Below, piece by piece: positions 5,085 through 52,900 of a stretch of DNA of 64,000 nt. Made by a program: the position numbers and the translations under genes. This DNA comes from Tubulanus polymorphus. Lineage: Eukaryota; Animalia; Nemertea. Positions within the stretch are counted from its first letter, which is position 1; the number at the start of each line of letters is the position of its first letter. The notes under the pieces were generated by a model. That model saw only the letters and a program-made list of their open reading frames with translations. It was not told where the DNA came from and ran no database searches. The stretch is from NCBI RefSeq assembly GCF_964204645.1, contig NC_134028.1:10044001-10108000 (forward strand), written 5' to 3'.

Positions 5085-5275
5085 AGTAATAGGGATAATA
5101 GGCTTTTATACCAAAGGTCGAAAGGTCGAGAAATTTTCCAAATGTGAAAATAACAATAATTTCTACTTGAATTAGTCGCGTACACTCCTAGAAGTAGAAA
5201 TTATTATTATTTTAACATTTGGAAAATTTCTCAACCTCTCAACCTTTGATATGAAAGCCCATTATCCCTATTACT
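5085..5275. repeat. 191-bp imperfect terminal palindrome (hairpin) of copy A
   Basis: AGTAATAGGGATAAT...TTTCTACTT, loop GAATTAGTCGCGTACACTCCTAG, AAGTAGAAA...ATTATCCCTATTACT. Confidence 0.9.
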
Positions 5276-5599
5276 CTTAAAATAATCATATACATGAATA
5301 AAATATAAATGAATAACATATATAAGTAATTAGAAAATCAGGCTTTCAAGCCAGAGTTAAAGAGTACGAGCTCTTTGAGAATAGATAGATAGATATATTT
5401 TAAACATTATTTCAATATTTATATTTGTATGAGTTAGATTTTTAAACATTGAAAGTGTTAGTTAAGTGTGATTGATTTAATACATAGCATTTGCTTATAC
5501 TAGAACATGATTCTATTTGAGCCTATATACATTTCATGTAATGAACTATTGAATACATCTATAAACTCACAGCTGTCACAGCTGTTACTATGACGCCGA

Positions 5600-6674: not shown

Positions 6675-7310
6675 ATGGAATCAGAACAACCACAAACTAT
6701 CAATATTACAAATAACACTGGTGTTATAAATATATACTACAAGAAGTGTTCTAAGTGTGAATTAGCTATAACAGAATTTAGTAAGCGTAAGATTAGCAAA
6801 GATGGTTTTCAATATTGCTGTAAAACTTGTTTTAAACTATATACCAAACAATATCGAGCAGATAATATAGAACATTATAATTATTATATGGCAGAATATA
6901 TGAGAGAAAGATATCAAACAGATCTTAATTTTAGATTGAAACAATGCTTAAGGACTAGATTAACACAATTATTCAACAAAGAAACACATTCAGAAATATA
7001 ATCTAATTTGTTGAGTTGTACAGATAAATTTCTTAAATCATGGATTATATTTCAATTCGATGGTCAAATGAATATAGATAATTATGGAGATTATTTTCAT
7101 ATTGATCATACGTTACAAATATCTAAATTTAACATGAATGATGAATACAATAAAAAACTTATTTGGAATTGGAAAAATTTAAGACCTCTTGAAAAGAAAG
7201 AAAATAAAATCAAATCTAATGAACTAGATTTACAGTTAGATTTAGAACAGTTAACAAAGGCAAAGAAATTTATTGATCAATGGAACAATGATCCGAATAA
7301 TGAACAATAA
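6675..7310 (+). pseudogene. HNH/endonuclease-VII-like nuclease with N-terminal CxxC...CxxC, giant-virus/phage type
   Basis: CSKC...KDGFQYCCKTC; NYGDYFHIDH...NWKNLRPLEKKENKIKSN; two ORFs in the same frame separated by one in-frame TAA (6999-7001). Confidence 0.75.
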
Positions 7311-7603: not shown

Positions 7604-8206
7604 ATGTCAAAGAAATCTAATAAGAATAGTATTAATATTGAAAAAACATTAGATGATTTGGGTATAAGTGATAATAAGGATCCAGTTGTTTCTAATTCTA
7701 TTCAAGTTAATAACAATATTGATTATGAATACTACTTATATTGTAAACACCATCTTGAATTACTAATTGCTGGCGGGAAATCTAAAGAGTTTTTAACTAA
7801 GATAATTACTTTTCAAGAATTAGATGCTATGAAACCAGATAAAGTAATGAAATATTTTAAGATTTATGAAGAAGCTAGATTAGCTAGAATAAATGATTCT
7901 ATTTCAGATGGTATTGTCAAATGTTATTCTAAGTTATGTAACCAGTTAATACCAATTGATGACGAAAATAAATTATATAGTGATTTGAAAAATGACTATT
8001 TAGTTATGACTGAATTACAAAAATGGGTTGGATATGCTTCATTCCAATTTCTTATGACATTAATTTCTACTGGTGTCATAACATTTTCGAACATCAAACC
8101 TATGGAATATAAATCAGGTAAGAACGAAACTGATGACGCTGTACTACAACCAAACGGTGAAACAGAAAATGAATCAGAACAAAAATTAACTAAAATAAAT
8201 GAGTGA
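7604..8206 (+). CDS. Conserved Polinton hypothetical protein, homologue of 52295-52900
   Basis: Shared IEKTLDDLGI, YEYYLYCKH, IYEEAR.ARIND, LYSDLKNDYLVMTEL; starts TATAAATG. Confidence 0.8.
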   Translation: MSKKSNKNSINIEKTLDDLGISDNKDPVVSNSIQVNNNIDYEYYLYCKHHLELLIAGGKSKEFLTKIITFQELDAMKPDKVMKYFKIYEEARLARINDSISDGIVKCYSKLCNQLIPIDDENKLYSDLKNDYLVMTELQKWVGYASFQFLMTLISTGVITFSNIKPMEYKSGKNETDDAVLQPNGETENESEQKLTKINE

Positions 8207-8572
8207 TGGCGTTAAGAAAAAGGCTAGATCAGAGAAACAAATTAAATGGGCAAGAGCATTAGGTAAAAGATCTTCAGAATTAAAAAAGCTAAGAAAAAGA
8301 AATTAACTGATATAAATGAATCACAGAAATTATCTGATATTGATTCAAATAACAATCCATCTAATGCTTCTAATAGTGGAAGAAATAATTACTTATATAT
8401 TACAATTGGATTAGTAACAGTTATTATATTCTCTGGTGTAATATATAAATCTAAATTCAATAATGATTCTGATGATAAAGATGATTCCAATGATAATAAA
8501 CCTATTATACCAGAAAATAAGTCAAATCATAAAGGCATTGAAACTAAATCTAAATTATTATTGATAGATTAA
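8199..8572 (+). pseudogene. Small basic/TM protein, homologue of 52833-53201, frameshifted
   Basis: MSDGVKKKARSEKQIKWARALG resembles KKKPRTQKQIEWSRQLG; hydrophobic YLYITIGLVTVIIF segment lies in another frame. Confidence 0.65.
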
Positions 8573-8578
8573 AATAAG

Positions 8579-9204
8579 ATGAAAAAAGAACAATATTTAA
8601 GAGATTTATATTACAACCCAGAAAGTGAAATATCATATTCTAGCGTTTCTGAATTATGGAATAAAATTAAATCTGATAATGAAAATGGTGCCGTATGGCA
8701 CCCACATGGTGATATAAAATATAGTGAATTAAAAACAAAATCAACCAACATATCAAATCCACAAGAAAATGGATAAAACTTATTTGACAAGAAAAGTTAT
8801 GGTTTCATATATCGATCAACAATGGCAAGCAGATTTAATTGACATGAAGAACTTAGAGGAATACAACAAAAGATATTTCTGGATACTGAATGTTATAGAC
8901 ATATTCAGTAGATACACATGGTCAATTCCAATCAAAAATAAAACTGGTATAGAAGTGACAAATGCTTTTAAATCAATATTTAAAGAAGCTATTCCAGATA
9001 ATTTGATGAAGGTAAGGAATTTTATAACAAACATTTTAAAAAACTATTATCTGATAACGATGTAGATTATTTTTCAACACACGCAGATAAAAGAGCATCT
9101 ATTATAGAAAGATTTAATAAAACATTGAAAACTAGAATGTGGAAATATTTACTGCTAATGAAACATATAAATATATCGATGTGTTAGATGATTTAGTGAA
9201 AGGT
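8579..9204 (+). pseudogene. RVE integrase, frameshifted, truncated by insertion of copy B
   Basis: YLRDLYYNPE, DQQWQADLIDM, IDIFSRY, IIERFNKTLKTRMWKY; ends abruptly at the TIR of copy B. Confidence 0.85.
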
Positions 9205-9292
9205 AGAAATAGGAAAAGTAGGCTTTCAGATCAGAGGTCGAGAGGTCGAGACACCACTCATCACCACAAGTAATTTTTTTCCCTTATAAATG
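9205..9292 (+). repeat. Left TIR of copy B
   Basis: AGAAATAGGAAAAGTAGGCTTTCAGATCAGAGGTCGAGAGGTCGAGACACCACTCATCACC...TATAAATG, similar to C TIR. Confidence 0.85.
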
Positions 9293-12200
9293 GAGAATGA
9301 ACAACAGCCAGAAAACAATAATGTCAATAAAATCAATATTATTGCCAATATTGTAAAAAATACATCGATAAATCCCAAAAATCACGACATGAAAAATCTG
9401 CAAATCATATAAAAAATGTAATAGATTTTGAAACTCCAGAAAATTCCAATGAAAGAAAAGAACGATTAGATGATATGAATGTGGATGAAATAAAATGTGA
9501 AGTTTGTAATGAATTTATAGTAAAAAGGAATTTTAATAGACTCGAATCACAAAAACACCACCAAAATTTGAGTAATAATGTTTTAGGAAAATATTATTTC
9601 GATGATAAACCTCAACAAGTAAAAAAACCAACTTCAAAAACTAAATCCATTTCAAATAAACCTTACATGGAAAATGTTAGAAATTATATTGATTCACTAG
9701 AAATAAAAGATACAATTGAAATATTAGAAACATTACGTAGTAAAATTGGTCCTGCAGCTATTATATTTAGATTTTTTAAAGGTACAACAATAGAAGATTA
9801 TAGTGAATTTAATGAAATAATAGAAAAAATACTAGATTTGATAACAGATGTTGAATATCCAAAAATTAGTATCTCTGGGAAAGTAAGTTTTTTAAAGTCG
9901 GAAGATAAAATGGATTATAATATTCAAACACTCTCTGAAGAAATAATTTCAAAAACACAAATAAAAGAGAAGTTAGAAAAAATATTTAATGAATTTAAAC
10001 GTCACATTGAAGAAAGATATTTTGAGGGTTCTGGCTTAACATTGAATGAAATTATATTTTTAGATTTAAATGTTTATAATACAAAAAAAAATAAAACATC
10101 AAAAAGTAATAAAATGTTTAAAAATGATTCAAACTTTACAACAGAAAAGGAGGATATTAAAGCATCATCTTATATTAAATTACCATTTACAACAAAAGCA
10201 GTAATAAATATTCAAAATGAAGATAATAAATGTTTTCTATGGTCAATTATTAGTTGCTTACATCCAACACAGGAAAATGTTTGTAGAATAACAGATTACC
10301 GGAAATATGAAACATTATATAAAATTTATCAATATCCAGTAACTATAAAAATGATTCCTAAAATAGAAAAAGTTAATAATTTAAAAATAAATGTATTCGA
10401 ATTAATGCAATTACCAAAGACAAAAGGTGAAAATATTAAAGATTATACATTGGAAGCTTTATATTAAACAGAATATTATGATGATGAAAATGCTATAGAT
10501 TTGTTATATTACAAAAAAGATGCAAATGAACATTATATGTGGTTAAAACAAATTGATTTATTCTTTAGAACAGAAAGTGATCATCATCATAAAATTTATC
10601 TATGTGGAAAATGTTTATCTAAATTTATGACTGAGAATACATTATTAAAACATAAAGAATTATGTGATTATAAAGATTTTTGTAAATTAATAATGCCAAC
10701 AGAAAAAGATTATAAATTGAAATTTACTAATCATAAATTTAAGAATATTGTTCCATTTGTAATTTATGGGGATTTTGAATCGTTGAATAAAGAATTAACT
10801 GATCAAGATAGAAAAGAAATATATAACAAAAAGCAATTATTAAAATCAATGGAAAAAGGAAATGAATTAAATGAAGACACAACACAAGACCTGCCAATTA
10901 TAAATACAATTAAAAAAGTTCATCAAAGAGCTGCTGCTTATGGAATTTATATAAAATCAAATTATCCTGAATTATATGAAAGTCAATATATTTCTTTTAG
11001 AGGTGAAAATGTAGTTAATGATTTTTGTAACAAAATAATTGAATTAGAAAGTGATTTTGCAGAATTATTAAACAATAATAAAAGAATAGTTATGACAAAA
11101 GAAGATGAAATTGATTTTAATTATGCAACTCATTGTTGTTATTGTGAAAAATGTTTTTATTCATTTGATAAAAAAGTTAGAGATCATGATCATTTAAATT
11201 CAAAATATCGTGGAGCTGCTCATGAAGATTGTAATTTACAAGCTAAAAAAGTAAATTTCGTTCCAATATTATTTCATAATTTATTAGGCTATGATACCCA
11301 TCTATTTATAAAACAATTATCGGGAAAATTGGGCGCAATTAATCAAGAAATAGAAGAATATAATGCTGTGAATGGTGTAAATGTAAGAAAATATGATTTT
11401 AAAATATTAGCTAAAACATCTGAAAATTATATTTCATTTCAATTTGGTTGCATTAGATTTTTAGATTCTTATAGATTTCTAGCAAGTTCATTAGATAATT
11501 TATCAAAAAGTTTAGTTGATAATGATTTTAAAATAACTCGATATTATTTTCCAAATGAACAAGATTTTAAATTATTGAGATATAAAGGCGCAATTCCTTA
11601 TTCATTTTATAAAACGCATGATGATTTCAAAGAAACAAAATTAATGAAAGAACAATTTTATGATCAATTAAAAAATGAGTACGTGAAAGATTAAGTTTTT
11701 GAAAGAACGATTAATATATGGAATCATTTTAGAATAAAAAACCATGGTGAATTAGTTGATCTTTACTTAAAATCAGATGTTATGATATTAGCCGATATAT
11801 TTGAAAAATTTAGAGAAGTCAATTTGAATCATGTTAATGGTGATCCATGCTATTGCTACTCAAGTCCTGGTTTAACCTGGCAATGTCGATTAAAATTTAC
11901 AGATATAAAAATGGATTTGTTAACAAATATAGATATGGTTTTATTATTTGAAAAATCAATTAGAGGTGGAATTAGTGGTGTTATGGGAGATAGATATTTT
12001 AAAGCAAATGATGAATATAAATTATTATATATTGACGCCAATAATTTATATGGCTGGGCAATGATGCAACCTCAACCATATAAAATTTTTATATTAACAG
12101 AAGTTGAAACAGATTGGGAAAGTGAAATTGCGAGTTTAAAAGATGAAGCACCCATTGGTTATTTCTTTGTAGTTGATTTAGAATATCTGAAAATATAAAG

Positions 12201-21340: not shown

Positions 21341-21432
21341 TTTCCCCTTTGATTATTTGTTATTTGTTCTCTCATTCATTTCGTCTCTGACTTAACTTGT
21401 ATTCACCTTTGTTTTAATTTAAGTGCCCCCCT

Positions 21433-37349: not shown

Positions 37350-37429
37350 AGTAATTGGAAAAGTGGGCTTTCATACCAGAGGGCGAGACACCACTCATCA
37401 CCAAGTAATTTGTTTTCCTTATAAATGGG
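37350..37429 (+). repeat. Left TIR of copy C (80 bp)
   Basis: AGTAATTGGAAAAGTGGGCTTTCATACCAGAGGGCGAGACACC...TATAAATGGG. Confidence 0.95.
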
Positions 37430-40400
37430 GGAGAATGAACACCAACCAGAAAACAATAATGTCAATAAAAATCAATATTATTGTCAATATTGTAAAAAAT
37501 ACATCGATACATCTCATAAAACACGACATGAAAAATCTGCAAATCATATAAAAAATGTAATAGATTTTGAAACTCCAGAAAATTCCAATGAAAGAAAAGA
37601 ACGATTAGAAAATATGAATGTGGATGAAATAAAATGTGAAGTTTGTAATGAATTTATAGTAAAAAGGAATTATAATAGACATCTCGAATCACAAAACATT
37701 ATAAAAATTTAAATAAAAATGTTTTAGGATTAGAATATTTTGATAATAAACCTCAACAAGTAAAAGAATCAACTTCAAAAACTAAATCCATTTCAAATAA
37801 ACCTTACACGGAAAATGTTAGAAATTATATTGATTCACTAGAAATAAAAGATACAATTGAAATTTTAGAAACATTACATAGTAAAATTGGTCCTGCAGCT
37901 ATTATATTTAGATTTTTTAAAGGTACAACAATAGAAGATTATAGTAAATTTAATGAAATAATAGAAAAAATACTTGATTTGATAACAGATGTTGAATATC
38001 CAAAAATTAGTATCTCTGGGAAAGTAAGTTTTATAAAGTCAGAAGAAAAAATGAATTATAATATTCAAACACTCTCTGAAGAAATAATTTCAAAAACACA
38101 AATAAAAGAGAAGTTAGAAAAAATATTTAATGAATTTAAACGTCATATTGAAGAAAGATATTTTGAGGGTTCTGGCTTAAAATTGAATGAAATTATATAT
38201 TTAGATTTAAATGTTTATAATACAAAAAGAAATAAAACATCAAAAAGTAATAAAATGTTTAAAAATGATTCAAACTTTACAACAGAAAAGGATATTAAAG
38301 CATCATCTTATATTAAATTACCATTTACAACAAAAGCAGTAATAAATATTCAAAATGAAGATAATAAATGTTTTCTATGGTCAATTATTAGTTGTTTACA
38401 CCAAACAGAAGATATGACGCATAGTTTTAGAATAACAAATTACCGGAAATATGAAACATTATATAAAATTGATCAATATCCAGTAACTATAAAAATGATT
38501 CCTAAAATAGAAAAAGTTAATAATTTAAAAATAAATGTATTCGAATTAATGCAATTACCAAAGACAAAAGGTGAAAATATTAAAGATTATACATTGGAAG
38601 CTTTATATTTAACAGAATATTATGATGATGAAAATGCTATAGATTTGTTATATTACAAAAAAGATGAAAATGAACATTATATGTGGTTAAAACAAATTGA
38701 TTTATTCTTTAGAACAGAAAGTGATCATCATCATAAAATTTATCTATGTAGAAAATGTTTATCTAAATTTATGACTGGGAATACATTACTAAAACATAAA
38801 GAATTATGTGATAATAAAGATTTTTGTAAATTAATAATGCCAACAGAAAAAGATTATAAATTGAAATTTACTAATCATAAATTTAAAAATATTGTTCCAT
38901 TTGTAATTTATGGGGATTTTGAATCGTTGAATAAAGAATTAACTGATCAAGATAGAAAAGAAATATATAACAAAAAGCAATTATTAAAATCAATGGATAA
39001 AGGAAGTGAATTAAATGAAGATATAATTCAAGACCCAACAATTATAAATACAATTAAAAAAGTTCATCAAAGAGCTGCTGCTTATGGAATTTATATAAAA
39101 TCAAATTATCCCGAATTATATGAAAGTCAATATATTTCTTTTAGAGGTGAAAATGTAGTTAATGATTTTTGTGATAAAATGATTGAATTAGAAAGTGATT
39201 CTGTAAAATTATTAAACAAAAATAAAAGAATAGTTATGACAAAAGAAGATGAAATTGATTTTAATTATGCAACATATTGTTGTTATTGTGAAAAACGTTT
39301 TTATTCATTTGATAAAAGAGTTAGAGATCATGATCATTTAAATTCAAAATATCGTGGAGCTGCTCATGAAGATTGCAATTTACAAGCTAAAAAAGTAAAT
39401 TTCGTACCAATATTATTTCATAATTTATCAGGATATGATACCCATCTATTTATAAAACAATTATCGGGAAAATTGGATGCAATTAATCAAGAAATAGAAG
39501 AATATAATGCTATGAATGAAGCAAATGTAAGAAAATATGATTTTAAACTATCAGCTAAAACATCTGAAAATTATATTTCATTTCAATTTGGTTGCATTAG
39601 ATTTTTAGATTCTTATAGATTTCTAGCAAATTCATTAGATATTTTATCAAAAAGTTTAGTTGATAATGATTTTGTTATAACTCGATATTATTATCCAAAT
39701 GACCAAGATTTTAAATTATTGAGATATAAAGGCGCAATACCTTACTCATTTTATAAAACGCATGATGATTTCAAAGAAACAAAATTATTAAAAGATCAAT
39801 TTTATGATAAATTAAAAGAGGAGTATGTGAAAGATGAAGTGTTTAATAGAACATAAATATTTTAAATATTTGGAACCATTTTAAGATGAAAAATCATGGT
39901 GAATTAGTTGATTTATATTTAAAATCAGATGTTATGATATTGGCTGATATATTTGAAAAATTTAGAGAAGTTAATTTGAATCATTTTAATGTTGATCCTT
40001 GTTATTGCTACTCTAGTCCTGGTTTAACCTGGCAATGTGGTTTAAAATATACAAATGTAGAATTAGATTTATTAAAAGAACCAGATATGGTTTTATTATT
40101 TGAAAAATCAATTAGAGGTGGAATTAGTGGTGTTATGGGAGATAGGTATTTTAAAGCAAATGATGAATATAAATTATTATATATTGACGCCAATAATTTA
40201 TATGGTTGGGCAATGATGCAACCTCAACCACATAAAAATTTTATATTAACAGACGTTGAAAATGGTGATAAAACTGATTGGGAAAGCGCAATTGCGAGTT
40301 TAAAAGATGAAGCACCAATTGGTTATTTCTTTGTAGTTGATTTAGAATATCCTGAAAATATAAAGTTTAAAACAAGAAACTTACCTTATTGCCCAAAACA

Positions 40401-42501
40401 TTTAACTGTAGATGATAGTTATTTAAGTGAATACCAGAAGAAAATAAAACCGAAAGATCATGTTTTTACAGAAAAATTAATACTTACTCAAAATAATAAA
40501 TACAATTATATTGTTCATTATAGAATGTTAAAATTTTATCTAAAACAAGGAATGAAATTAAAGAAAGTACATAGATATATTGAATTTAATCAATCGAAGT
40601 GGTTAGAAAAATATATAGATTTCAATACTCAACAGAGAACCATATCAAAAACAGATTTTGAAAAAGATTTTTTCAAATTGATGAACAATAGTTTTTATGG
40701 AAAAACATGTGAAAATATTAGAAATAGAAATGATATTGAATTAGTAAATAATTCTGAAAGATTAAGACATTTACAATCAAGTCCTAGACATTTAGGAAAT
40801 AAAAGGTTTGAAGATTATTTAACCACGGTAAAATTAAAAAGAACGTCCATGAAATTTAATAAACCAATATTTATAGGTTCAACTGTTTTAGAAATATCAA
40901 AATTATTAATGTATGATTTTTATTATAATGTTTTGCAACCACTTTTTGGGGAAAAGCATATTGAAATATTATATTTTGATTCTGTAACAGCTGACACCCC
41001 AATATTATTAAAATGTAATAATAAAATATTGGTAAGAAGAATTTCAGAAATAATTCCAAAACAAAATGAACTTTATATTTCATATGGTGAAAAAGAATTA
41101 ATACAAATAAATGGTTTAATAGATGTTTGGACAAGAAATGGATGGAAAAAATTAAAGAATATTATTAGACATAAAACAAATAAGAAAATCTATAGAGTTA
41201 GAACTAAATTAGGATTTGTAGATGTTACAGAAGATCATAGTTTAATTAAACGAAATGGTGATGAAATAAAACCAACTTATATAAAAATTGGAGATGAATT
41301 ATTACATAAAAGATTTTTCCAAAGAATGAATCATATGTCATTTGATGAAATAATTGATAATATTTATAATATAGAACCCGAAACATTAGAACAAAAAGAA
41401 TATTTTATCAAAGGATTTTTCATGGGCGATGGTTCAGCAGGTGTGTATAATTATGTTTGGGGTAATAAATATTGTTGGTATTTATGCAATCAAGACTTAA
41501 AATTATTAGAAAGAATTAAGAAATTCTGTAAAGAAGTTTATCCAAATAAAACATTTAGAATCATGGATGTTATGAAATCAACAGCAGTTTATAGAATACT
41601 TGTAAATAATCCTAAAGATTTTGCTATGAAATATAATGATGAATTCTATATTCATGCAATAGTGAAAAGTAATACTTCAACTAAAGAAAGAATAGTACCA
41701 GATTATGTATTAAATACAAAAAATAATTTAAGAAAGTGGTTCTTCATTGGATTCTATGCCGCAGATGGTTCAAAAAGTTTCCAAAACCGCAAAACAATAT
41801 CCTTTGCTCAAAAAGGAAAAGTTGCTATATCAGGATTGAATATATTATGTAGTTCATTAGGATTTAATATGAATATAGAATTAATTAAATCTAAACCAAA
41901 TTGTTTTAATTTAAGGCATGTAGAAAATGAGTTAACAGAAGAAGTTAAAGATTTATTTGAAATATATAACCCAACTGACTATGTTTATGATTTATCAACA
42001 GATGATGGAACATTCAATTCTGGGTTCCCATTAATCCAAAAAAATACCGACAGTTACATACTAAAAATCAAGACAAATGATATAACAAAAGACTTAAAAA
42101 CATTAAAACATTATTTTGATTTCAGCAATTACCCCAAAGATCATGAACTATTTAGCAATGATAATAAAAAGATTCCTGGTAAGTTTAAAGATGAATTAGG
42201 AGGTGATGAAATGATTGAATTTGTTGGGATAAGAAGTAAAATGTATAGTTACAGAACAAAAGATCATGAAGCTAAAAAGTTAAAAGGAATAACAAAACAT
42301 GTGGTTGATAAACATATAGAATTTCAAGATTATATAAAGTGTTTATATAACTCAATTGTAATGAAACACAAAATGAATTGTTTAAGATCAGAAGATCACG
42401 AGATGTACATTAATGAAGTTGAAAAAACTAGTTTAAATCCATTTGATGATAAAAGGCATATTTCAGATGATGGTATAAAAACATTACCTTATGGCTATTA
42501 A
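37425..42501 (+). pseudogene. polB: pPolB: N-terminal Zn fingers, OTU-like region, exonuclease with EndoVII-like HNH insert, polymerase with intein; two frameshifts
   Basis: C2H2-like fingers; DNKCFLWSI...EHYMW; YGDFES; VRDHDH...GAAHEDCN; FHNLSGYD; YIDANNLYG; KLMNNSFYGK; YFD/TDS; shifts at ~37700 and ~39855. Confidence 0.94.
40981..42045 (+). mobile_element. Intein (355 aa) with intact LAGLIDADG homing endonuclease, inserted in pPolB motif C
   Basis: Block A SVTADTPIL; block B VTEDHSL; LAGLIDADG motifs FIKGFFMGDGS and FFIGFYAADGS; block F YVYDLST; block G IQKN followed by Thr; removal restores YFDTDS. Confidence 0.95.
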
Positions 42502-43799
42502 AACATAAAATCAATATCATCAAACTCGAAATCACTATTGTCTTCTTCATTTTCATTTAATTGTTTAGGTTCTTCTTCTATTCCATTTTTTTCATTTAAA
42601 TAAAGTTCTATCTTGTTCCACATTTCATCTCGCTCTCTTTGTTTCTTTTTGTTTGTTAATTCATCAAATGGAATTATAATATCTAGGTTTAAATAATTTA
42701 CAATCTTATTTAAAAAGAATTCATAATATATTGAATCTGTTATTCTATTTTCTAAATGATATATTAATATTTGTTTGAATATTTTTTTTATATTTTCTAT
42801 ATCTTCTTCTGTTAATTTAGGTTTTTCATAATAATCGTTAAATAATAAATATAAATACATTTTCTTTTCTTTTGTGTTGAATGTTGACGGAATAATTGTA
42901 TTTATAATATCTTTTTTAGTTATTTCACCATTTTCATTTTCTATTATTTTCATTTCTTCAAGCCATTGCATATATTCTAATGTATGATCTTCCATAGAAA
43001 ATATCTTAAAAATTTCATCAAGATAATTTAATTTTGGTTCTATGAGAAAATCTCTAGTTTTTTCTTCGCCCCATAAATTCCTTTGCCATCCACAATCAAC
43101 ACAAAATAACACAGGACCTTCTTGTCTTAAGGTCGTATAATAACATTGTGGGCATTTTTGTTTATAAATTATTGGTAATAGATCTTCATTAAGCTCTTGG
43201 TATTTTCTTACGTTTTCTTTATGTTTTATTGTTCTATCATGTAGATTTGAATTACTTGCTGTAATAATCAATTTACAATATTTACAATAATATGTTTTTC
43301 TTGTTAATTCATTATATTGTTTTTCTAAATTTTCAACTGTTTCTTCATTATCTGGTAACGTTTTCTCATATTTTATTTTTTCTAATAAATTATTTTTTCT
43401 TGCATTGAATTCGGTTTCAAATTTATTAGAAATTTTATCTATATGTGCTTTACGAAATTGATGATTCTCCCAATCTTCTATATTTTCAGGGCTATATTTT
43501 ATTCGACAAGGCTCACAGAAATGATCTTTTATATTATCCTTGTCATAGAATAAGAAAGGTCTTTTCCAAATAATTTCAGGTTCAACTTCAACAGAATTAT
43601 TATCAACATTAGCCATTGCGCCATTAATTCTACACTTCTCTGAATGTTTTTTAACATAATTTCTTGAGAATGATTTATTACATTTTGGACAGTTCATTCT
43701 GGGGGGTTTATAATTTTCTTCATGTTTTTTCATATGTCGAGCCATATTACTTTTTCTGATAAGTTCACCACAAATTTCACAAGCTATCTTCTCATCCAT
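42498..43799 (-). CDS. Multi zinc-finger protein with acidic C-terminus, possible regulator
   Basis: CEIC..H..H, CPKC, CEPC..H, CKYC..H, CPQC..CVDC; acidic tail EEDNSDFEFDDIDF. Confidence 0.8.
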   Translation of the reverse strand: MDEKIACEICGELIRKSNMARHMKKHEENYKPPRMNCPKCNKSFSRNYVKKHSEKCRINGAMANVDNNSVEVEPEIIWKRPFLFYDKDNIKDHFCEPCRIKYSPENIEDWENHQFRKAHIDKISNKFETEFNARKNNLLEKIKYEKTLPDNEETVENLEKQYNELTRKTYYCKYCKLIITASNSNLHDRTIKHKENVRKYQELNEDLLPIIYKQKCPQCYYTTLRQEGPVLFCVDCGWQRNLWGEEKTRDFLIEPKLNYLDEIFKIFSMEDHTLEYMQWLEEMKIIENENGEITKKDIINTIIPSTFNTKEKKMYLYLLFNDYYEKPKLTEEDIENIKKIFKQILIYHLENRITDSIYYEFFLNKIVNYLNLDIIIPFDELTNKKKQRERDEMWNKIELYLNEKNGIEEEPKQLNENEEDNSDFEFDDIDFMF

Positions 43800-43867
43800 T
43801 TATTAAGGAAAAATTTTATTAAAATTAATTTTTAGTGATGAGCGGTAATTTTTTTATGTTATAAATA

Positions 43868-44620
43868 ATGGTAGAATTAAAAGAATACAGAATATTTGTT
43901 GATTCAAGAAAACTTACAAATTATAAATCTCATAATTTATTAGTACAATTAGATAGAGAATTTAAGAATTGTGTAGATTTAAAATTAGTAAATATAAGTT
44001 TATGTAACTCATTTTATAATATAACGGCTAAAAGTCTTGAACATTAATTTTTTTCAATCAGGAGTAAGAATAAATGGAATTATCTATTTTTAAAACCAGG
44101 ATTATATAATTTAGATACATTAGCGCAGGAAATTAATAAAAAAGCTCGGATCAAATTAGGTAGTGATGCTGAATTTAACATTAGATTTTTGAAAAGTGAT
44201 AATTCTAATAAAATGAAGATAAGGTTAGCTCATAATGAAAAATATCAATTTTCAGTTAAAAAACCTATAGCTAAACTATTAGGAATTACACCAGATAAAT
44301 TTTATTCAAATGTTGATACTACGCCAAATATAATACCTTTTACGCACTTCTATATTTATTGCAATTTAATCGATCCTATAAAAACATTTGAAGCAACTAA
44401 AGATACAACATGTAATTCTAGTATATTAAATATTTTACCAATGAAGAACGTTAAACAATTTGGAACGCAAATAAATTATAATTTAGCTGAATGTGATTTC
44501 AAACCTTGTATTCCTCAATTTAATAATTTTAAATTAGAAATAAGAAATCATAATGGATACTTAATTGATTTGAATAACTTTCCTGTAATTTATGAATTAG
44601 TTATAAGATGTAAAGAGTAA
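43868..44620 (+). pseudogene. Putative minor capsid (penton, single jelly-roll) protein; in-frame TAA at 44045
   Basis: IFVDSR, PGLYN, FYIYCNLI, EIRNHNGYLIDLNN..YEL motifs resemble Polinton/virophage mCP; ~250 aa. Confidence 0.65.
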
Positions 44621-44636
44621 TTTTTCGCCTATATAA

Positions 44637-44990
44637 ATGAATATAACTGTTGGACCGAGTATATGTTTTGGGTTTGATTTTAAACGTGAGAAAGAAATAA
44701 AATTTAACATGAATGATGTAATTACACATATCAAAAATATTGCATTTTCTAATGAAACAACATTTGAGTATGAAACAACAATAGATAAAGAAACTTTTAA
44801 TGCAGAAAAGATTACTAATTTAATTAGAGAATCTTTAAGATTTTATGAATTAGATGAAGATTTTATCATCGATGATATTAAAAAAATAATAATTGAAATA
44901 TACACAAATGAAACTAGTAATAAAATAAATGTTGAATTAATCATCACTAAGATAACAAAATATTTTAAAGATAGTAATTTTTTTGATTAA
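44637..44990 (+). CDS. Conserved 117-aa protein
   Basis: Intact in three copies. Confidence 0.78.
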   Translation: MNITVGPSICFGFDFKREKEIKFNMNDVITHIKNIAFSNETTFEYETTIDKETFNAEKITNLIRESLRFYELDEDFIIDDIKKIIIEIYTNETSNKINVELIITKITKYFKDSNFFD

Positions 44991-44993
44991 TAA

Positions 44994-45215
44994 ATGAGTG
45001 ATAATAAGTGGATAATAACTGGATTATATAATGGCGCATTACTATCAGTTGGAACTGTTGGTTATTCAATGGTATTAAAAAAAGTATTCAAAATGGGAAG
45101 TGTTAATGTTGATAGATTTGATATAAATGATATTTTAAAGTTAACATTAGCAGTTACTTTATCTAATTTAACAATTGATTATTTGGAAAAACAAAAATAT
45201 ATTCCTCCCATATAA
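44994..45215 (+). CDS. 73-aa hydrophobic, probable membrane protein
   Basis: Two hydrophobic segments; conserved in D (62309). Confidence 0.75.
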   Translation: MSDNKWIITGLYNGALLSVGTVGYSMVLKKVFKMGSVNVDRFDINDILKLTLAVTLSNLTIDYLEKQKYIPPI

Positions 45216-45242
45216 GAAGTGTGTAATTTTTTTGCTAAATAA

Positions 45243-45665
45243 ATGGCTTCTGCAATTATAACTATTATAGGATCGGCAATTGTTAACGCTTTAGCATTTA
45301 CTGGTGGTGGTTATTTATTTAAACATATTGATAAAAATAGTTCATTAGGAGAACAAAGAAGACATAACTTAGCGTTAGAGAAATACAATAAAGCTGCAGA
45401 AGAATATAGAGAAAAGAGACAAAACTATATGGATTACATCAATAAAGAATTATATGATCAGAAGATTTCACATAGAGATTTTCAATCAGTTGATGATGCA
45501 ATGAGTTTATATAACGCGGTAACCAATAAAGAAAAATTACATCTATACAAACCTAAATTATCAGATTATTGTACCCCAAGTAAAGAACAACAGAAATATG
45601 AAATAATATGGATTTTAGGTGGAACAGTTATTGTTATATTTGTTGCTTATAAATTTACTAATTAG
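45243..45665 (+). CDS. 140-aa protein with hydrophobic N- and C-terminal helices and an EQRRHNLALE coiled segment
   Basis: Conserved in B, C and D. Confidence 0.8.
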   Translation: MASAIITIIGSAIVNALAFTGGGYLFKHIDKNSSLGEQRRHNLALEKYNKAAEEYREKRQNYMDYINKELYDQKISHRDFQSVDDAMSLYNAVTNKEKLHLYKPKLSDYCTPSKEQQKYEIIWILGGTVIVIFVAYKFTN

Positions 45666-45684
45666 TAATTTTTTTTCTAAATAA

Positions 45685-46119
45685 ATGGAAGATAAAGTTG
45701 ATAGTATTGATATTATTCCTCATGATATAAATAAAACTAAATTAAAAACATATTTAGAAAAACAAATATTAGAATTTGAAAGTGACTTAAAGATAAAAAA
45801 GAAAAAATATTTAAAAAGTAAAATTATATATTATTTGATTATAAGTGGTTCGGTTACAATTAGTTCTGTAATAACATTTTTAGCAATATTCAGCCCATTA
45901 ACACCTTTAGCTATATCAATTGGTGTATTAGGATTAAGTTCAAGTGTTTTAACTGGTATAAGTTCAAAATTAAATATAAAAAGTAATAAAGAAAAAATTA
46001 AAACTTATATAAAAGAAATTAATAAATTAAAGAACACACTAGATTATATAATAAGTTTAAATGGTCATATAACAGTTGAAGAACAAGATAAATTATTAAA
46101 AGAATTAATAAATTATTAA
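45685..46119 (+). CDS. 144-aa two-TM protein
   Basis: IIYYLIISGSVTISSVITFLAIF / LAISIGVLGLSSSVL; conserved in D (62998). Confidence 0.8.
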   Translation: MEDKVDSIDIIPHDINKTKLKTYLEKQILEFESDLKIKKKKYLKSKIIYYLIISGSVTISSVITFLAIFSPLTPLAISIGVLGLSSSVLTGISSKLNIKSNKEKIKTYIKEINKLKNTLDYIISLNGHITVEEQDKLLKELINY

Positions 46120-46135
46120 TTTTTTAGTTATATAA

Positions 46136-47437
46136 ATGGGGTTTCCAAAAGCTTTCCAATATAATAAATCAATTAAATATAATATTCCGGCAATAGATTT
46201 TAAGAAAAATATTACATATAAAAATGTAGTTTTAAATTCATTAACTAATTTAGAAATTTATGTTAATGAATCACAGTTTTTTATTTCTAAAATGGAAAAT
46301 ATATTTAATACATATGAAGTTACTTTTACTCGAGATGAATATCATATATATAAAGTAAAATCTAATATGAAATATTGGCAGAATCAATTAAATTTTGCTG
46401 TTTATTGTGCAACAACAGGATGTGGAATAAGTTGGAATGATAATTTAAATAACTTAGATAAAAATTTGAAGTATTCTGATTTAAAATTAATTCACACAAT
46501 ATTTAGATTTCACACATATTTTCAAATCAGAATAATATTAAATGAATTAGAATGTCCTTTACCCGGGTCTAAATATTTTAAAGAATTGGATAATAATATT
46601 AATATATCCAAGTTTTATAAAATATGTAATGAATTTAATATAAATATTAATTCCGATTTCAGAGCGCATGGTAAATTGCAAGGTGTTGGTGAACAGTATG
46701 AAATAAAAAGAATTGATTATATGCATAGAATTGGAGCTTATCATAATTATAAAATTGATAATAATAATGGTTGGGTTAATTTCATTTTAGAAAATGGTGA
46801 AGGTTTTACAAAATCAGGTATACAAAGAATAAATCAATCTATTAGAATTTATTTGATATGTATTTTAGGCGCTCAAGTTGAAACAAGATCCCCAATAATT
46901 GGAAATGATAACACTTCATTCGATGCGCAGAAACAATTTAAAGTTTTATTTGAAGATTCAATTCATAATGATAAAAATAGATCGATTCCAGAAAACATTG
47001 TAAGATATCAAAATTATTTAGATAAATCTCATGTAAGACTTAATTATTGTATAGGCCCTAATCTATTAATTACTTCTAATGATTTAGTATTAAAGATGGG
47101 AAACATAATTGGTTATAATAATCTAATTAAAACTGCAACAATAAATAATTCATTTGGATTAAATGATATAAATAAAAAGATTATCACTGCTCCAAAATTA
47201 ATGGAAGGTGAAAAAAATAAAAAACATATTCAATCAACAGAAACTAAAACTAATAATATTAAATTAAATAATGATTCCAAAATAAAAGATTACAATACTA
47301 CAGAAAATAATAGAACTGATATTATTCAACATGATATAATTAAACTAAATGATGATAATAAATCCCATGAAAATACTAAATTAGCTATAACTTGTATAGG
47401 AATTGTTATAGGAGGAATATTATATTTTAAATTTTAA
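46136..47437 (+). CDS. 433-aa conserved Polinton protein with C-terminal TM anchor
   Basis: WQNQLNFAVYCATTGCGIS, RFHTYFQIR, GWVNFI; C-terminal LAITCIGIVIGGILYF. Confidence 0.82.
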   Translation: MGFPKAFQYNKSIKYNIPAIDFKKNITYKNVVLNSLTNLEIYVNESQFFISKMENIFNTYEVTFTRDEYHIYKVKSNMKYWQNQLNFAVYCATTGCGISWNDNLNNLDKNLKYSDLKLIHTIFRFHTYFQIRIILNELECPLPGSKYFKELDNNINISKFYKICNEFNININSDFRAHGKLQGVGEQYEIKRIDYMHRIGAYHNYKIDNNNGWVNFILENGEGFTKSGIQRINQSIRIYLICILGAQVETRSPIIGNDNTSFDAQKQFKVLFEDSIHNDKNRSIPENIVRYQNYLDKSHVRLNYCIGPNLLITSNDLVLKMGNIIGYNNLIKTATINNSFGLNDINKKIITAPKLMEGEKNKKHIQSTETKTNNIKLNNDSKIKDYNTTENNRTDIIQHDIIKLNDDNKSHENTKLAITCIGIVIGGILYFKF

Positions 47438-47453
47438 TTTTTTTATTATATAA

Positions 47454-48878
47454 ATGGATGTAGAAGGTGGAGAAGATATTGGAATGGATCCTTTTGATGA
47501 ACCTGGTATAACTGAACAACCACCTGATTTTGATGAAACAAGTTTTAATGATGGTAATGAGCCAGAATATAATAATAATTTGAATACACCTCAATATATT
47601 GATAAAACACGTTCAAAGATAAGTATTGAAAATGAAGTACCAGAAATAACAGAAAAAGAATACAATTATAATGAAATTATTCATGAATTTAAACCAATAT
47701 TAAAAAGATCTGGTTTCAATATAACAAATAAAGGTATGAATTATTTAGTAAAAGATTTAAAATATTTAAATGGTGATTATTATTGGAAATTGAAAGGCGA
47801 CTATTATTTTAAGATTTCAAATCTTAAAAGTAGCGATAAAATAATAACACAATCAACTTTTAATTTATTTAAACCAGATAGAATTAAGAAAATCATTGAT
47901 GATGTTATAACTGATGTTACACAAGAAGAAAGAGATGATAATATAAAAGAATTTAAACAAAGAAATGCTAAATTTTTTAAGATAATTAATGAAAATTTAA
48001 GACAAAAAAAAATTCCTAAAGAAGTTATTAATTCCAAAACTAGTAAACCTAATTCAAGCGAAGTTCAAACTGAAAAACTTTTACCAAATGGATTACTTGA
48101 TGCAACAGATCAACAATTAGAAGATTTAAATATATTTTCTGATGAAGCAATTAGAGAAATTATTAGTATAAGAAATGAAGCTGATAAAATTGCACATAAT
48201 AAAAGTATAAGAGATCAAAAAATTAGAACTTTAGAAAAAGAATTAACTGATAAAAATAAAGAAATAGAACAATTAAAGTCTGATTTAGATCATCAAGTAA
48301 TTGATGAAATAGAATATAAACAAAAAGAATTACGTTTAGAAAAAGAAATAGATGATTTGAAATATAACAAAGAATTACAAAAAGAAGAAAGAGATACATT
48401 ATTAAAATCATATGATTATAATATTAATAGATTAAAAGTTATTTTTAAAGATTTGTTGATTAAACCAAATTCTGAAATATCATTAAAAGACAGAATAAGA
48501 TTATTATTTAAATTAGAAGGAATAACAATTCTTTCAATTCTAACAGCTGTAACTATGTTATTTACAACAATTGGTTTAGCAATATCAAATGCTTTGAAAT
48601 CTACTCCTACTCCCAATAAACCGGATAAACCCCCGAATGATAATAATTCTATAAAAGATAAAGTTAAAGATGGTTTAAAGAAATTAGCAAAATATTTATG
48701 GGAACTATCTAAAAAATCTGCTGCAGCATTGCCAGGAGTTATTGCATCAATTGTTGGTTTTATATTGAAATCTGCTGGGAATATTCTTAACTTTGCTGCT
48801 GAACATATTATTTTATTTTTAATTACAGTTGTAAGTGCTATTATTTTTGGTTTAGTAAACATAATCAAAAATAAATAA
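47454..48878 (+). CDS. 474-aa protein: acidic N-terminus, coiled coil, hydrophobic C-terminal helices
   Basis: Heptad-rich middle; GITILSILTAVTMLFTTIGLAI and LPGVIASIVGFIL...IILFLITVVSAIIFGLV. Confidence 0.82.
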   Translation: MDVEGGEDIGMDPFDEPGITEQPPDFDETSFNDGNEPEYNNNLNTPQYIDKTRSKISIENEVPEITEKEYNYNEIIHEFKPILKRSGFNITNKGMNYLVKDLKYLNGDYYWKLKGDYYFKISNLKSSDKIITQSTFNLFKPDRIKKIIDDVITDVTQEERDDNIKEFKQRNAKFFKIINENLRQKKIPKEVINSKTSKPNSSEVQTEKLLPNGLLDATDQQLEDLNIFSDEAIREIISIRNEADKIAHNKSIRDQKIRTLEKELTDKNKEIEQLKSDLDHQVIDEIEYKQKELRLEKEIDDLKYNKELQKEERDTLLKSYDYNINRLKVIFKDLLIKPNSEISLKDRIRLLFKLEGITILSILTAVTMLFTTIGLAISNALKSTPTPNKPDKPPNDNNSIKDKVKDGLKKLAKYLWELSKKSAAALPGVIASIVGFILKSAGNILNFAAEHIILFLITVVSAIIFGLVNIIKNK

Positions 48879-48897
48879 TTAATTTTTTGTTAAATAA

Positions 48898-50148
48898 ATG
48901 AGTGGGAGTTATATAAGTCCTTCTAAGATTTCTAGAATATCTAATGCTATTAAAGCAGAAAGATCACATCATATAATTACTCATAACCCTTCAAATATTA
49001 ATCCCAATGAAACTTTATACGTTAGAATCCCTCGATTAACACAAAATACTTTTTATGTTCCAAATAGTATTTATTTATCAGCCGATATAAAAGTAACTGG
49101 CCATGATAACAATTATGTTGTTGATAATGTTGGGAGATATTTGATTAAAAAATTAATTATAAAGATTGGTCCAGAAACAGTTTTCTCATTAGATGATTAT
49201 AATTTATTTATGCATTATAAAGATTTATGGTTAACTAAAGAAAATAGAAATAATATGATATTCCAAGGCATTCAATCGGTAAACCAAAATAAATTAAGCC
49301 AATAATAATGAAGCCAATAATGCAGTAGTAGCTAATGACGTAGATAATTTGATTAAAAAGATTTATGGAAGCAAATATAAAATTCCGTTAGATTTTGAAT
49401 TGATAAATAATAATGCACCTTTATATAAATACGCAATTCAAGAAGATATTATATTTGAGATAACATTTGCTCCTGTAAATGAAATTGTATTATCTAGCGT
49501 TGTTAAAGATATGGGTTATAAATTATCGAATATATGTTTAGAATATAATACAGTAACTAATGAAATTATTGCTAATACAATTCAAACTCAATACAATCAA
49601 GGATTTTCATTATTATATGATTATATTGATAAATTTAAAACTGTAACTATTAATGCAAATGATGAAATAATTAATGAGAATATTAACTTCCCAAGAAGAT
49701 CTATTAAAGGTATATATTTTTTACCATTGCAACATATTCTAATGGCGCAATAAATGTTGACAATTATTATAATCCTGAAATATCAAAAGTAGAAATAACT
49801 ATTGAAGGTATAGCAAATAAAATATTTTGCCAAGGAATGAGAATGATTGATCAATGGCCAGAAATTAGAAAACATTTTATGAATGAAAAAGTAAAATCAT
49901 TTGAAAATTGTAATATTAATCAAATTGATTATTATACCGGCAATAAATATGCATTATGGTTAGATTTTAGAACAACAGAGGATAATTCATTACATGGTTC
50001 TGGGAAAAAACTACAGAACACTAAAGATGGAATACAATTATTCATGAAAAAGAAAAAAGGAAGCTTAAATTTCAAAATGCACATTTATATTATATCTGAC
50101 GCGCAATTAAATATTGTAAATTCACAATTAGATAGTATTCAATATTAG
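48898..50148 (+). pseudogene. Putative major capsid protein (double jelly-roll), two frameshifts
   Basis: ~415 aa, beta-rich; ITHNPSNI, NVGRYLIKKL, NICLEY, PRRSIKGI, YALWLDFRT..DNSLHGSG; adjacent to integrase and ATPase. Confidence 0.7.
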
Positions 50149-50178
50149 AAATATAAAGTTAAAATTAAGGATATATAA

Positions 50179-51306
50179 ATGGGTGGTAAAAAAACTCATA
50201 ATACTAAAGAACAATATTTAAGAAATTTATATTACAACCCTGAGAGTTCGGTTGCTTATTCTTCTACTAAAAATATATGGCGTAAAGTAAAACAAGATAA
50301 ATTAGATAAGATAATCCCACAAAATTTAGTTAAATATAAAGATATAAATGAATTTATGTTAGAACAACCAACGTATACAACACATAAAAAAATTGTTAGA
50401 AAATATAAAACTCGTAAAACTATGGTAAGTTATGTAGATCAACAGTGGCAAGGAGATTTAATTGATATGAAAAATCTTAAAAAAGATAATAATGATTATT
50501 GGTGGATATTGAATATAATTGATATTTTTAGTCGTTATGTATGGAGCTTCCCACTTTATAGAAAAGATGCTGCACAAACATCACATGTTTTAAGAAAATT
50601 TCTTTCAGGTGGTAAACTAAAACCAGAAAAAATTCAATTTGATGATGGAAAAGAATTTGATAATTCATCTATTCATGGTCTCTTAGATTTTCATAATATT
50701 AAATATTTTTTGACAAAATCGGATAAAAAAGCAGCAGTTGTTGAACGATTTAATAGAACATTAAGAACAAGAATGTGGAAATATTTTACAGCAAATAATA
50801 CTTTTAAATGGATTGATGTTTTACCAAAATTTATAGAAGGATATAATAATTCTTATCATTCTTCTATTGGAATGAAACCTATTGATGCTAGAAAACCTGA
50901 AAATGCTGAAATTGTTTGGAATAATTTATATGGAGCATTTCTTGTAGATGATTTTGGTGAACCTAAATTTAAAGTTGGTCAAAATGTTAGAATTTCTAAG
51001 TATAAAAAGATATTTGATAAAGGATGCGATCGAAATTTTACTAGAGAAATATATAAAATAATAAAGGTAATAACAACTAAACCATATGTCTATAAATTAG
51101 AAGATTTAGATGGTGAAGAAGTTGATGGATATTTTTATGAAGAAGAATTAAGTTTAACTACTGAAAATCTAGAACAAGAATATAAAATTGAAAAAGTATT
51201 AAAAACAAAAACTGTTAAAAGAAAAAAATATTCTTTAGTAAAATGGGTTGGATGGCCAGATAAATTTAATGAATGGATATTATCAAGTAAAATTAAAAAT
51301 ATATAA
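50179..51306 (+). CDS. RVE integrase with C-terminal chromodomain (intact)
   Basis: WQGDLIDM (D), IQFDDGKEF (D), VVERFNRTL (E); YKIEKVL...LVKWVGWPDKFNEWI. Confidence 0.94.
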   Translation: MGGKKTHNTKEQYLRNLYYNPESSVAYSSTKNIWRKVKQDKLDKIIPQNLVKYKDINEFMLEQPTYTTHKKIVRKYKTRKTMVSYVDQQWQGDLIDMKNLKKDNNDYWWILNIIDIFSRYVWSFPLYRKDAAQTSHVLRKFLSGGKLKPEKIQFDDGKEFDNSSIHGLLDFHNIKYFLTKSDKKAAVVERFNRTLRTRMWKYFTANNTFKWIDVLPKFIEGYNNSYHSSIGMKPIDARKPENAEIVWNNLYGAFLVDDFGEPKFKVGQNVRISKYKKIFDKGCDRNFTREIYKIIKVITTKPYVYKLEDLDGEEVDGYFYEEELSLTTENLEQEYKIEKVLKTKTVKRKKYSLVKWVGWPDKFNEWILSSKIKNI

Positions 51307-51915
51307 ATGAATAAGGAATTATTTATATTTGAGCCTCATAATATGTTAATTTCTGGTGTAACAAATTGTGGAAAAACTTATTTTATATTAAATTTATTAG
51401 AAACTGTTTATGAAAACTATTTTGATAATATAGTATTATTTTGTCCAACATATGAATTTAATCAAACTTATAATAGAAATATTACTAGAAATAATAAATT
51501 TATTATATTAGATCCTAAAACAGTAAAAGAAAATTTAGATAATTGTATAAAAATAGCAATTGATATTTATAAAGGATCAAATACATTATTCATTATAGAT
51601 GATTGTGCTAATCTACATGATTCAAAAGTTAGAGAAAGTGAGTTATGTTATTTAGCTTTTTCTGGCAGACATTTTGGGATAACAACTTGGGTTTTAAATC
51701 AAAAATATAATTCAATTGTTAAAGACTTTAGAGAAAACATTAGATTTCTAGTTTTATTCTACAATAAAGATAGAAAATCGATGAAAAATGCACTTGAGGA
51801 AAATGATATTATTCCACATGATTTACATAATGAATATATGGATAAGTTGAAAAATATTAAAAGATCAAAATTACTATTTAGATTACAACACCCATTTAAA
51901 TATGAATTTATTTAA
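51307..51915 (+). CDS. A32/FtsK-HerA-type DNA packaging ATPase (intact)
   Basis: GVTNCGKT, FIIDDC, GRHFGITTWVLNQ, FREN. Confidence 0.92.
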   Translation: MNKELFIFEPHNMLISGVTNCGKTYFILNLLETVYENYFDNIVLFCPTYEFNQTYNRNITRNNKFIILDPKTVKENLDNCIKIAIDIYKGSNTLFIIDDCANLHDSKVRESELCYLAFSGRHFGITTWVLNQKYNSIVKDFRENIRFLVLFYNKDRKSMKNALEENDIIPHDLHNEYMDKLKNIKRSKLLFRLQHPFKYEFI

Positions 51916-51924
51916 ATTCAATTA

Positions 51925-52265
51925 GTTTGTTAATCTAGTTGAATTCTAGTTATTGGTAGTTGTAACAAAAATCAAATAGATTTAACAATATTTTAACTAG
52001 CTTGTTAATCTAGTTTAATTCTAGTTACATTCTAGTTGAATTCTAGTTGTTAGTAGTTGTAACAAAAATCAAATAGATTTAACAATATTTTAACTAGCTT
52101 GTTAATCTAGTTTAATTCTAGTTATATTCTAGTTGAATTCTAGTTGTTAGTAGTTGAAACAAAAATCAACTAGATTTAACAAGAAATAAACAAACACAAC
52201 AATATTTCAACTAGCTTGTTAATCTAGTTGAATTCTAGTTACATTCTAGTTAAATTCTAGTTGCA
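51925..52265. repeat. 97-bp tandem repeat (~3.5 units) built of CTAG-rich subunits
   Basis: AACAAAAATCAA at 51964, 52061, 52158; recurring TTCTAGTT. Confidence 0.85.
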
Positions 52266-52294
52266 ACATCACAACTAATTTTTTTGTTATATAA

Positions 52295-52900
52295 ATGGTA
52301 GGTGAAAAGAAAATAAAATCTAAAAATGGTGATGTTCCAATTGAAAAAACTTTAGATGATTTAGGAATAACAGAAAACAAATTAATTCCAGATGATGGTG
52401 CTTTAAGTAATGTTACAACAAATAATAATTATGAATATTATCTTTATTGTAAACATCAATTAGAAATATTAATAGCATCTGGAAAATGTAAAAATTTTGT
52501 CGGTAAAAATTTAACTTATAATGAATTAGATACAATGAAATCAGATGAAATTATTAGATTATTTAAGATTTATGAAGCCGCGAGAACAGCTAGAATTAAT
52601 GACGCGATATCAGAAAATGTAGTAAAAGGTTATAGTAAATTATGTAATTATATACTACCAATTGAAAATGAAAATAGATTATATTCCGATTTAAAAAATG
52701 ATTATTTAGTTATGACTGAATTAAATAAATGGATTGGATATTTATCATTTCAATTAGGTGGATTTATGACATTATTATCAACGGGGGTTATAACATTTTC
52801 AAATATTGAAAGTAAAAATATTTCTATAATAAATGAGCGAGGTGAAAGAAGTGAAGGAATTAACTGTGAAGAAAAAACCGAGAACTCAGAAACAAATTGA
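52295..52900 (+). CDS. Conserved 201-aa Polinton protein
   Basis: Homologue at 7604-8206. Confidence 0.8.
   Translation: MVGEKKIKSKNGDVPIEKTLDDLGITENKLIPDDGALSNVTTNNNYEYYLYCKHQLEILIASGKCKNFVGKNLTYNELDTMKSDEIIRLFKIYEAARTARINDAISENVVKGYSKLCNYILPIENENRLYSDLKNDYLVMTELNKWIGYLSFQLGGFMTLLSTGVITFSNIESKNISIINERGERSEGINCEEKTENSETN

Follow-up and report, generated by a model that had tools for sequence, protein, structure and literature searches.

What the end of a Polinton must accomplish is a question on which the comparison of closely related elements might bear, as neither the replication of these elements nor the preparation of their ends for integration has yet been demonstrated in the field. Polintons/Mavericks are known to be bounded by terminal inverted repeats (TIRs) of 100-1500 bp and target-site duplications (TSDs) of 5-8 bp (Jeong et al. 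10.1101/2023.08.22.554363), and how the terminal protein comes off ahead of integration has been called unclear (PMC11161782). We analyzed a stretch of 64,000 nucleotides from the nemertean Tubulanus polymorphus (NC_134028.1, positions 10,044,001 to 10,108,000, forward strand; hereinafter the window), within which lie four Polinton-type elements, A, B, C and D (Table 1). This one genome holds both hairpin-ended and simple-ended sisters, with near-identical central genes, different polymerases and many variants of the hairpin, and the comparison of these sisters amounts to a natural test of what a Polinton end must do. We show that the hairpin is a real, family-wide terminal structure of a Polinton lineage with a protein-primed DNA polymerase (pPolB), and that its two arms evolve in concert.

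Table 1. Coordinates of the elements and features discussed in the text
Feature	Position in window	Strand	Description
Element A	from 5085		One end only in window; left end is the 191-bp hairpin
Terminal hairpin of A, 191 bp	5085..5275	.	Outer 46-bp end core, inner arm, loop, inverted inner arm, inverted core
Inner AT-rich part of ~400-bp terminal repeat (A)	5276..5485	+	Common to D; length-variable among copies
Third, direct copy of end core (A)	5325..5370	+	Depth about 145-165
Endonuclease VII/HNH-like ORF of A	6675..7310	+	One in-frame stop; phrog_1035 E 1.6e-8 (first piece)
Counterparts in A of two C genes, and a frameshifted rve integrase interrupted by B	7604..9187	+	Integrase E 1e-4, 47-58% to C
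Simple (non-folding) left TIR of Polinton B	9205..9293	+	Fold -4.2 kcal/mol
C, full-length sister Polinton	37350..54617	+	Simple ~90-bp TIRs, 6-bp TSD TGTTGC, pPolB, capsid-like ORF, rve integrase, A32 ATPase
Multicopy host repeat with 416-bp palindrome; D inserted in it	55760..56278	.	Depth 580-820; 353 empty-site reads
Element D	from 56279		One end only in window; 187-bp hairpin
Terminal hairpin of D, 187 bp	56279..56465	.	Loop 56367-56378
Inner part of D terminal repeat	56466..56658	+	Shared with A
D broken, intein-free protein-primed DNA polymerase	56713..60667	+	Zinc fingers, predicted terminal-protein domain (57040-57477), EndoVII insert, polymerase

The gene products of the full-length element C gave Pfam matches to the rve integrase (E 8.7e-10) and Pox_A32 (E 1.2e-12), and a weak one to Capsid_N (E 0.003). 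B starts at 9205 inside the integrase gene of A and is rearranged at its right, where its right half is inverted and partly duplicated (26386-31531); its right TIR was not found. B also contains an inserted reverse-transcriptase element (18582-21795), whose direct terminal repeats measure 363 bp (98%), and tandem arrays of 31-bp and 155-bp units flank C (32634-35959 and 54945-55669). Read inward, A presents an EndoVII/HNH-like ORF, lacking a good Pfam match, followed by the two C homologues and the integrase; possibly A represents the other end of a D-like element. Genes for a packaging ATPase or a capsid were not found in those parts of A and D that lie inside the window, and the position of the D integrase would fall outside it. 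Those homologues of the integrase that bear an organism name are from animals. The Pfam scans, with 24 + 9 protein queries, gave no match to an adenovirus-like maturation protease, nor was there an Rfam match anywhere in the window. The host repeat that received D contains a palindromic stretch (55760-56175) of nested inverted repeats, which is foldback/MITE-like and multicopy in the reads, with more units downstream at empty sites.

Both termini are, as a preliminary description of this DNA had held, long imperfect palindromes that start with AGTAAT and finish with ATTACT. As single-stranded DNA they fold far below shuffled controls, with energies of -59 kcal/mol for A and -67.5 kcal/mol for D (z of -17.5 and -19.2; in neither case did any of 200 shuffles reach this stability), against a window-wide median of -11.4 kcal/mol over 672 windows of 190 nt; in both folds the 3' tip is paired perfectly up to the last base. 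The arm pairs singled out in that description are present, including TTTCAGG/CCTGAAA in D, but TTTTATA/TATGAAA in A contains one T-G mismatch. Likewise, the sequence given as a shared loop is mostly stem in D, where the true loop measures 12 nt; in A the stem is opened in this region by a private 3-bp deletion. The sequence common to A and D indeed extends ~210 bp past the inner end of the hairpin, and the homology as a whole (5084-5485 versus 56278-56658) begins at the outer A and amounts to 78% over 409 columns. The supposed kinship of the outer arm with the simple TIRs is also borne out, its outer 46 bp matching the TIR starts of B at 78-81% and those of C at 72-79%; the simple TIRs of B and C themselves are without a fold (-4 to -6 kcal/mol). 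Since these 46 bp are a version of the B/C TIR start, the hairpin may be parsed as the end core followed by a spacer arm and a loop, after which arm and core return in inverted form. The third copy of the core in A is restricted to few copies of the element, most reads at this place being D-like. An assembly artefact is ruled out, as Logan contigs cross the loop and the reads of another study (run X5) cover both arms.

To place the hairpin relative to the insertion junction we turn to these X5 reads: raw reads of a single run, with the same species label and from a study separate from the assembled sequence, mapped onto both hairpins at 80% or more, where arm reads may map to either arm. At D, mixed loose ends precede 56279/56278 in 1940 + 415 of 11209 reads (agreement 0.34-0.36), depth continues beyond the inner end (from 1272 to 1583), and the reads of the empty site run into the host repeat seen at 55768. 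At A, the depth outside is 0.46 (5060-5072), mixed loose ends precede 5085 in 1189 of 6032 reads, and depth is similar over the left core (1975-2186), the right core (1918-2405) and the inner flank (2143). Among the best six X5 loose-end rows for A and for D, none lies at an inner hairpin end. Hence, the many different flanks at the outer AGTAAT, the shared inner flank and the empty site together identify the hairpin as the tip of a multicopy element, with the outer core copy as its insertion junction. Further, given the similar depth of left arm, right arm and inner flank, most of the mapped ends look like hairpins, and of the ends that map at 80% or more the majority seem to have both arms, contrary to the possibility raised earlier that the hairpin is absent from most family termini. 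As A and D each display one end in the window, that a hairpin caps both ends of the same element is something we infer.

The same reads bear on the idea that an independent MITE or mini-Polinton of 190 bp happens to be lodged at the element ends. It has the right form for this, with TIR-like arms around a short core. However, no TSD surrounds the unit itself in A (6-bp flanks GATACA/CTTAAA) or in D (GACGGA/CTAAAA), whereas C does have one; A and D share a homologous inner flank, which is covered as deeply as the arms, and mixed flanks occur at the outer end only. We therefore deem an independent unit highly improbable, even if the ancient capture of a MITE-like unit could have given rise to the element end. 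As to whether the TSD abuts the outer or the inner end of the hairpin, the reads place the junction at the outer end, although A and D themselves have no readable TSD pair.

We then aligned the four arms from the tip inward across 91 columns. In nine of these the two arms of a copy agree with each other and differ between copies, in one the same side agrees, and in none do the arms agree crosswise; the remainder comprises 58 invariant columns, 14 with a single change, two of other kinds and seven with gaps. Accordingly, the two arms of one copy are more often identical (79/88 and 77/87) than corresponding arms of the two copies (72/88 and 62/84). Nine out of ten has a binomial probability of 3.6e-4, and leaving out a hard-to-align block still gives six of seven (p 0.007). 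An independent-decay simulation of matching divergence produced 0.35-1.6 such columns and reached nine in 0 of 20000 runs, and among eight simulation settings only the most extreme one did so (0.2%). RNAalifold found both sides changed in 8 of 71 pairs. Columns 47-60 form a mirrored multi-base block, which by its layout looks templated rather than stepwise in origin. At arm position 35, A and D have a C-A mismatch in common, and wholesale copying would erase such a mismatch; the base A is kept at 5233 in 430 of 623 reads. The concerted evolution of the arms is clear. The preliminary description had taken it to mean that the structure is selected or actively converted. That the arms change together stands, but fold-back conversion produces the same pattern without selection; the correction of imperfect palindromes by folding back needs none, and co-variation alone is consequently no proof of use.

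Comparable behavior is seen among the further genomic copies represented in the reads. The variant tables for the two hairpins are unphased, derive from one run, and comprise 40 of 129 rows for D and 40 of 119 for A. Of the 19 listed rows that fall in the D hairpin, ten make up five complementary partner pairs (e.g. 56354 C>A in 516/1081 reads with 56391 G>T in 453/1290, and 56357 G>C in 328/1051 with 56388 C>G in 511/1287), four turn a mismatch into a pair, as at 56360 (1065/1081 reads), four alter a paired base without a listed partner row and one stays mismatched. For A, 21 listed rows were scored, leaving aside 5181 in the loop and 5191 beside an indel: eight form four pairs, seven resolve a mismatch, as at 5107 (1950/1983 reads), and six alter a paired base and lack a listed partner. 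Joints within reads disclose shorter hairpins of about 90, 96 and 122 bp in reads mapped to A (7, 62 and 14 reads) and of about 119 bp in those mapped to D (67 reads), two of these short classes bearing a CACAC-type loop. Another class has a different inner arm, entered by 715 reads from the left and 723 from the right, the mirror relation being judged by eye. The 715 reads, which leave at 56327, were considered as simple TIRs and rejected as such in view of this mirror on the right arm. Similarly, opposite-strand joints at 5172-5190 and from 56279 (79 reads), initially candidates for flip/flop forms, are explained by private changes in the reference arms. The loop has the same orientation in both assembled copies, and the read tables are of a kind that does not phase loop against flank. 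At 5180 and 56374, 325-396 reads go from the half loop into what by eye is an apparent second inner-arm unit, possibly a longer, nested class of hairpin. In sum, the copies retain the fold and the end core, and vary in length and inner sequence.

In D, the hairpin-bearing end is directly followed by the pPolB gene, a single long reading frame broken by stops (Pfam DNA_pol_B_2, E 7.7e-8), whose N-terminal ORF is 66% identical to a 1365-aa homologue. Against C, this pPolB is 60-76% identical, and the central gene block 94-96%; the hairpin end in the D copy is thus paired with a distinct polymerase. D is accordingly a mosaic (56279-64000), with its end module and pPolB at 70-79% to C and 61879-63478 at 94-96%, a composition which fits the turnover of end modules proposed for polinton-like viruses (PLVs; PMC11296320). 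The structure model of the terminal-protein region (pLDDT 86, from an alignment of eight rows) shows strands and helices in the order that has been described for this domain in polintons, and a Ser-Gly invariant in 8/8 rows sits in the loop before the last strand, again as described there (PMC11161782). Among viral proteins the model matches one from an adintovirus best (E 2e-6), and next polymerases with the labels densovirus and MELD virus; the top PDB matches, with E about 0.01 and no value under 0.001, are Y-family polymerases, and a relation of this domain to the Y-family has been reported (PMC11161782). Glutamate-cysteine-ligase look-alikes of this piece in the ESM Atlas were weak, below the recognition mark, and were rejected. 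Given that the predicted domain is kept even in this broken gene, protein priming is likely, on the strength of the model, to be retained in the D lineage. The pPolBs of C (39886-42501) and B (12508-14791) share an intein-like insert, with a LAGLIDADG domain in C, which D is without, and that of B has in addition a 1141-bp tandem duplication; endonuclease insertions in polinton pPolBs have been mentioned before (PMC11161782).

These observations can be accommodated by an account, whose chance of being correct we regard as about even, in which the hairpin is an inverted duplicate of the 46-bp end core, fold-back copying maintains the match between its arms, and the folded end provides terminal-protein-primed replication with a local duplex origin and a template for end repair. 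The account starts from two findings: insertion at the outer AGTAAT and not the inner one, as the reads place it, and arms that change together, including the mirrored block and the hairpins of different lengths. With its predicted terminal-protein domain, the pPolB would start by protein priming and proceed by strand displacement. The displaced strand could then fold at each tip, whereby a duplex end would be rebuilt without pairing ends many kilobases apart. Template switching, or trimming and refilling on the fold, might copy one arm onto the other, and such arm-to-arm copying would result in both the co-variation and the symmetric length classes. In the wider family the hairpin is not required, since B and C share the end core without it and C is full-length with a TSD.

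The principal rival, possible if doubtful in our view, is that the hairpin is a neutral by-product: a fold-back error would once have duplicated the end core, TIR copying from end to end would have spread it, and template-switch correction would keep the arms alike to no benefit. Template switching yields mirrored block changes and symmetric length classes, and both are encountered here; the simple TIRs of B and C, and an inner arm variable in sequence and length, are equally in its favor. Nevertheless, the fold is retained between copies about 20% apart and in spite of different inner arms, the hairpin appears to be the majority end type among the mapped reads, and the CACAC-type loop motif recurs in the short classes. 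Moreover, long palindromes are usually lost quickly, which we count against a neutral origin.

The two remaining rivals assign the fold a different role. In self-priming of the parvovirus/poxvirus kind, the folded 3' end would act as primer and a nick opposite the inner end would resolve the product, giving flip and flop forms. The perfectly paired 3' tip would furnish such a primer, the EndoVII/HNH-like ORF 1.4 kb inside A and the EndoVII-like insert in the D pPolB might supply a nuclease, and hairpin priming has been proposed for Halocafeteria virophages/PLVs (bioRxiv 10.64898/2026.07.28.741278). Yet the C pPolB has, by eye, the same EndoVII-like motif and no hairpin, the Halocafeteria palindromes as described there mostly accompany non-pPolB elements, D has a predicted terminal-protein domain with a Ser-Gly linking loop, and the loop orientation is the same in 2/2 copies; also, no match to an HUH Rep or telomere-resolvase family was obtained with 24 + 9 protein queries, which are part of the 52 window ORFs of at least 100 aa, A and D being incomplete. 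We consider self-priming unlikely. Alternatively, the fold or the inner inverted core could be a binding signal for the integrase or packaging machinery instead of the polymerase. Consistent with this, the whole end core is repeated in the inner arm, and mismatches in the vaccinia hairpin matter for assembly and not for DNA synthesis (PMC8956199), which recalls the C-A mismatch common to A and D. However, there is no visible sign of insertion at the inner core, with no loose ends there among the best six rows, and with its central genes near those of C and its end module diverged, D suggests that the hairpin travels with the polymerase and not with the central genes. A binding signal thus seems very unlikely, and we favor the local origin and repair template among the readings considered.

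Elsewhere, the loop pattern had 0 matches in viral_contigs and metagenome_contigs, and the arm pattern 0 in viral_contigs. Neither a hairpin nor an end-core homologue was present in the 81 metagenomic integrase loci (0, 80 and 1 from three integrase searches), 11 of which show some local inverted repeat; a TIR pair was found in 0 of the 15 contigs over 6 kb among them, and hence they offer no gauge of conservation in other hosts. Unrelated local palindromes were noted in these integrase loci, at L002:3554-3636, L003:768-856 and 3033-3105, L009:2276-2570 and L076:3908-4161. A motif of AGTAAT, a T-run and ATAAATG precedes several Polinton start codons in the window (37404, 45664, 52273), including those inside simple TIRs, and recurs in metagenomic relatives (L001:1712); it is a candidate promoter or leader of the element. 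The region inside the end of A (5590-6530) contains repeated sites that we take to be heat-shock-element-like (5631, 5693) and NRF1-like (6338, 6465), and is possibly a stress-responsive promoter region.

With the pPolB, rve integrase and A32 ATPase in the family, the 6-bp TSD of C and an end core common to B and C, these elements agree with known Polintons/Mavericks; A and D differ in that the terminal ~190 bp self-folds and includes a second, inverted end core, whereas the standard model, as generally presented, pairs end with end. Parvovirus ITRs are long imperfect terminal hairpins in which structure may matter more than sequence. The flip/flop telomeres of poxviruses are similarly long imperfect terminal hairpins in which structure may outweigh sequence (PMC8956199). 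The early analogy with these viruses holds as far as the long terminal hairpin but is otherwise weakened: the scanned ORFs gave no match to a Rep or resolvase, flip/flop was not seen in the two copies, D keeps its predicted terminal-protein domain, and integration is at the outer end of the hairpin. In a more far-reaching proposal, which is tentative and on the unlikely side, the lineage would have given up end-to-end pairing for self-folding ends that themselves prime or resolve replication, still with a terminal protein and integration at the tip. It would then be a living intermediate between adenovirus-type and parvovirus/poxvirus-type ends, in which the end and its own pPolB are passed on together as a single module.

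Adenovirus and PRD1 likewise are protein-primed linear replicons with inverted repeats, and their panhandles have been proposed, in an account offering no direct proof, as duplex origin and for the restoration of end homology (PMC11886824); such a panhandle joins both genome ends, whereas here each end could act locally. The terminal-protein-capped telomeres of Streptomyces have fold-back palindromes on which the ends are repaired (PMC5449611), but these are several and short, and serve end patching after replication from an internal origin, with Tap/Tpg; we claim no sequence relation. Casposon TIRs, too, can contain internal palindromes (PMC4046053). In the openly accessible full-text literature on hairpins, palindromes or stem-loops at Polinton, Maverick and virophage ends, we found one direct precedent, namely the Halocafeteria seosinensis virophages/PLV subtype 4, whose supplements may list pPolB cases; neither "hairpin" nor "palindrom" occurs in the main texts of the surveys on corals, nematodes and cryptophytes. 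There, too, a palindrome lies in the TIR at the insertion junction of rve-integrating elements, hairpin priming being only proposed (bioRxiv 10.64898/2026.07.28.741278). Those palindromes, however, measure 52 nt in the figured subtype, as against 90-190 bp with a pPolB here, where a predicted terminal protein is kept, co-variation extends across many copies and the D hairpin is directly followed by the pPolB. Terminal palindromes as such were thus already known, and the long, co-varying, self-folding ends of this pPolB Polinton depart from them in these respects.
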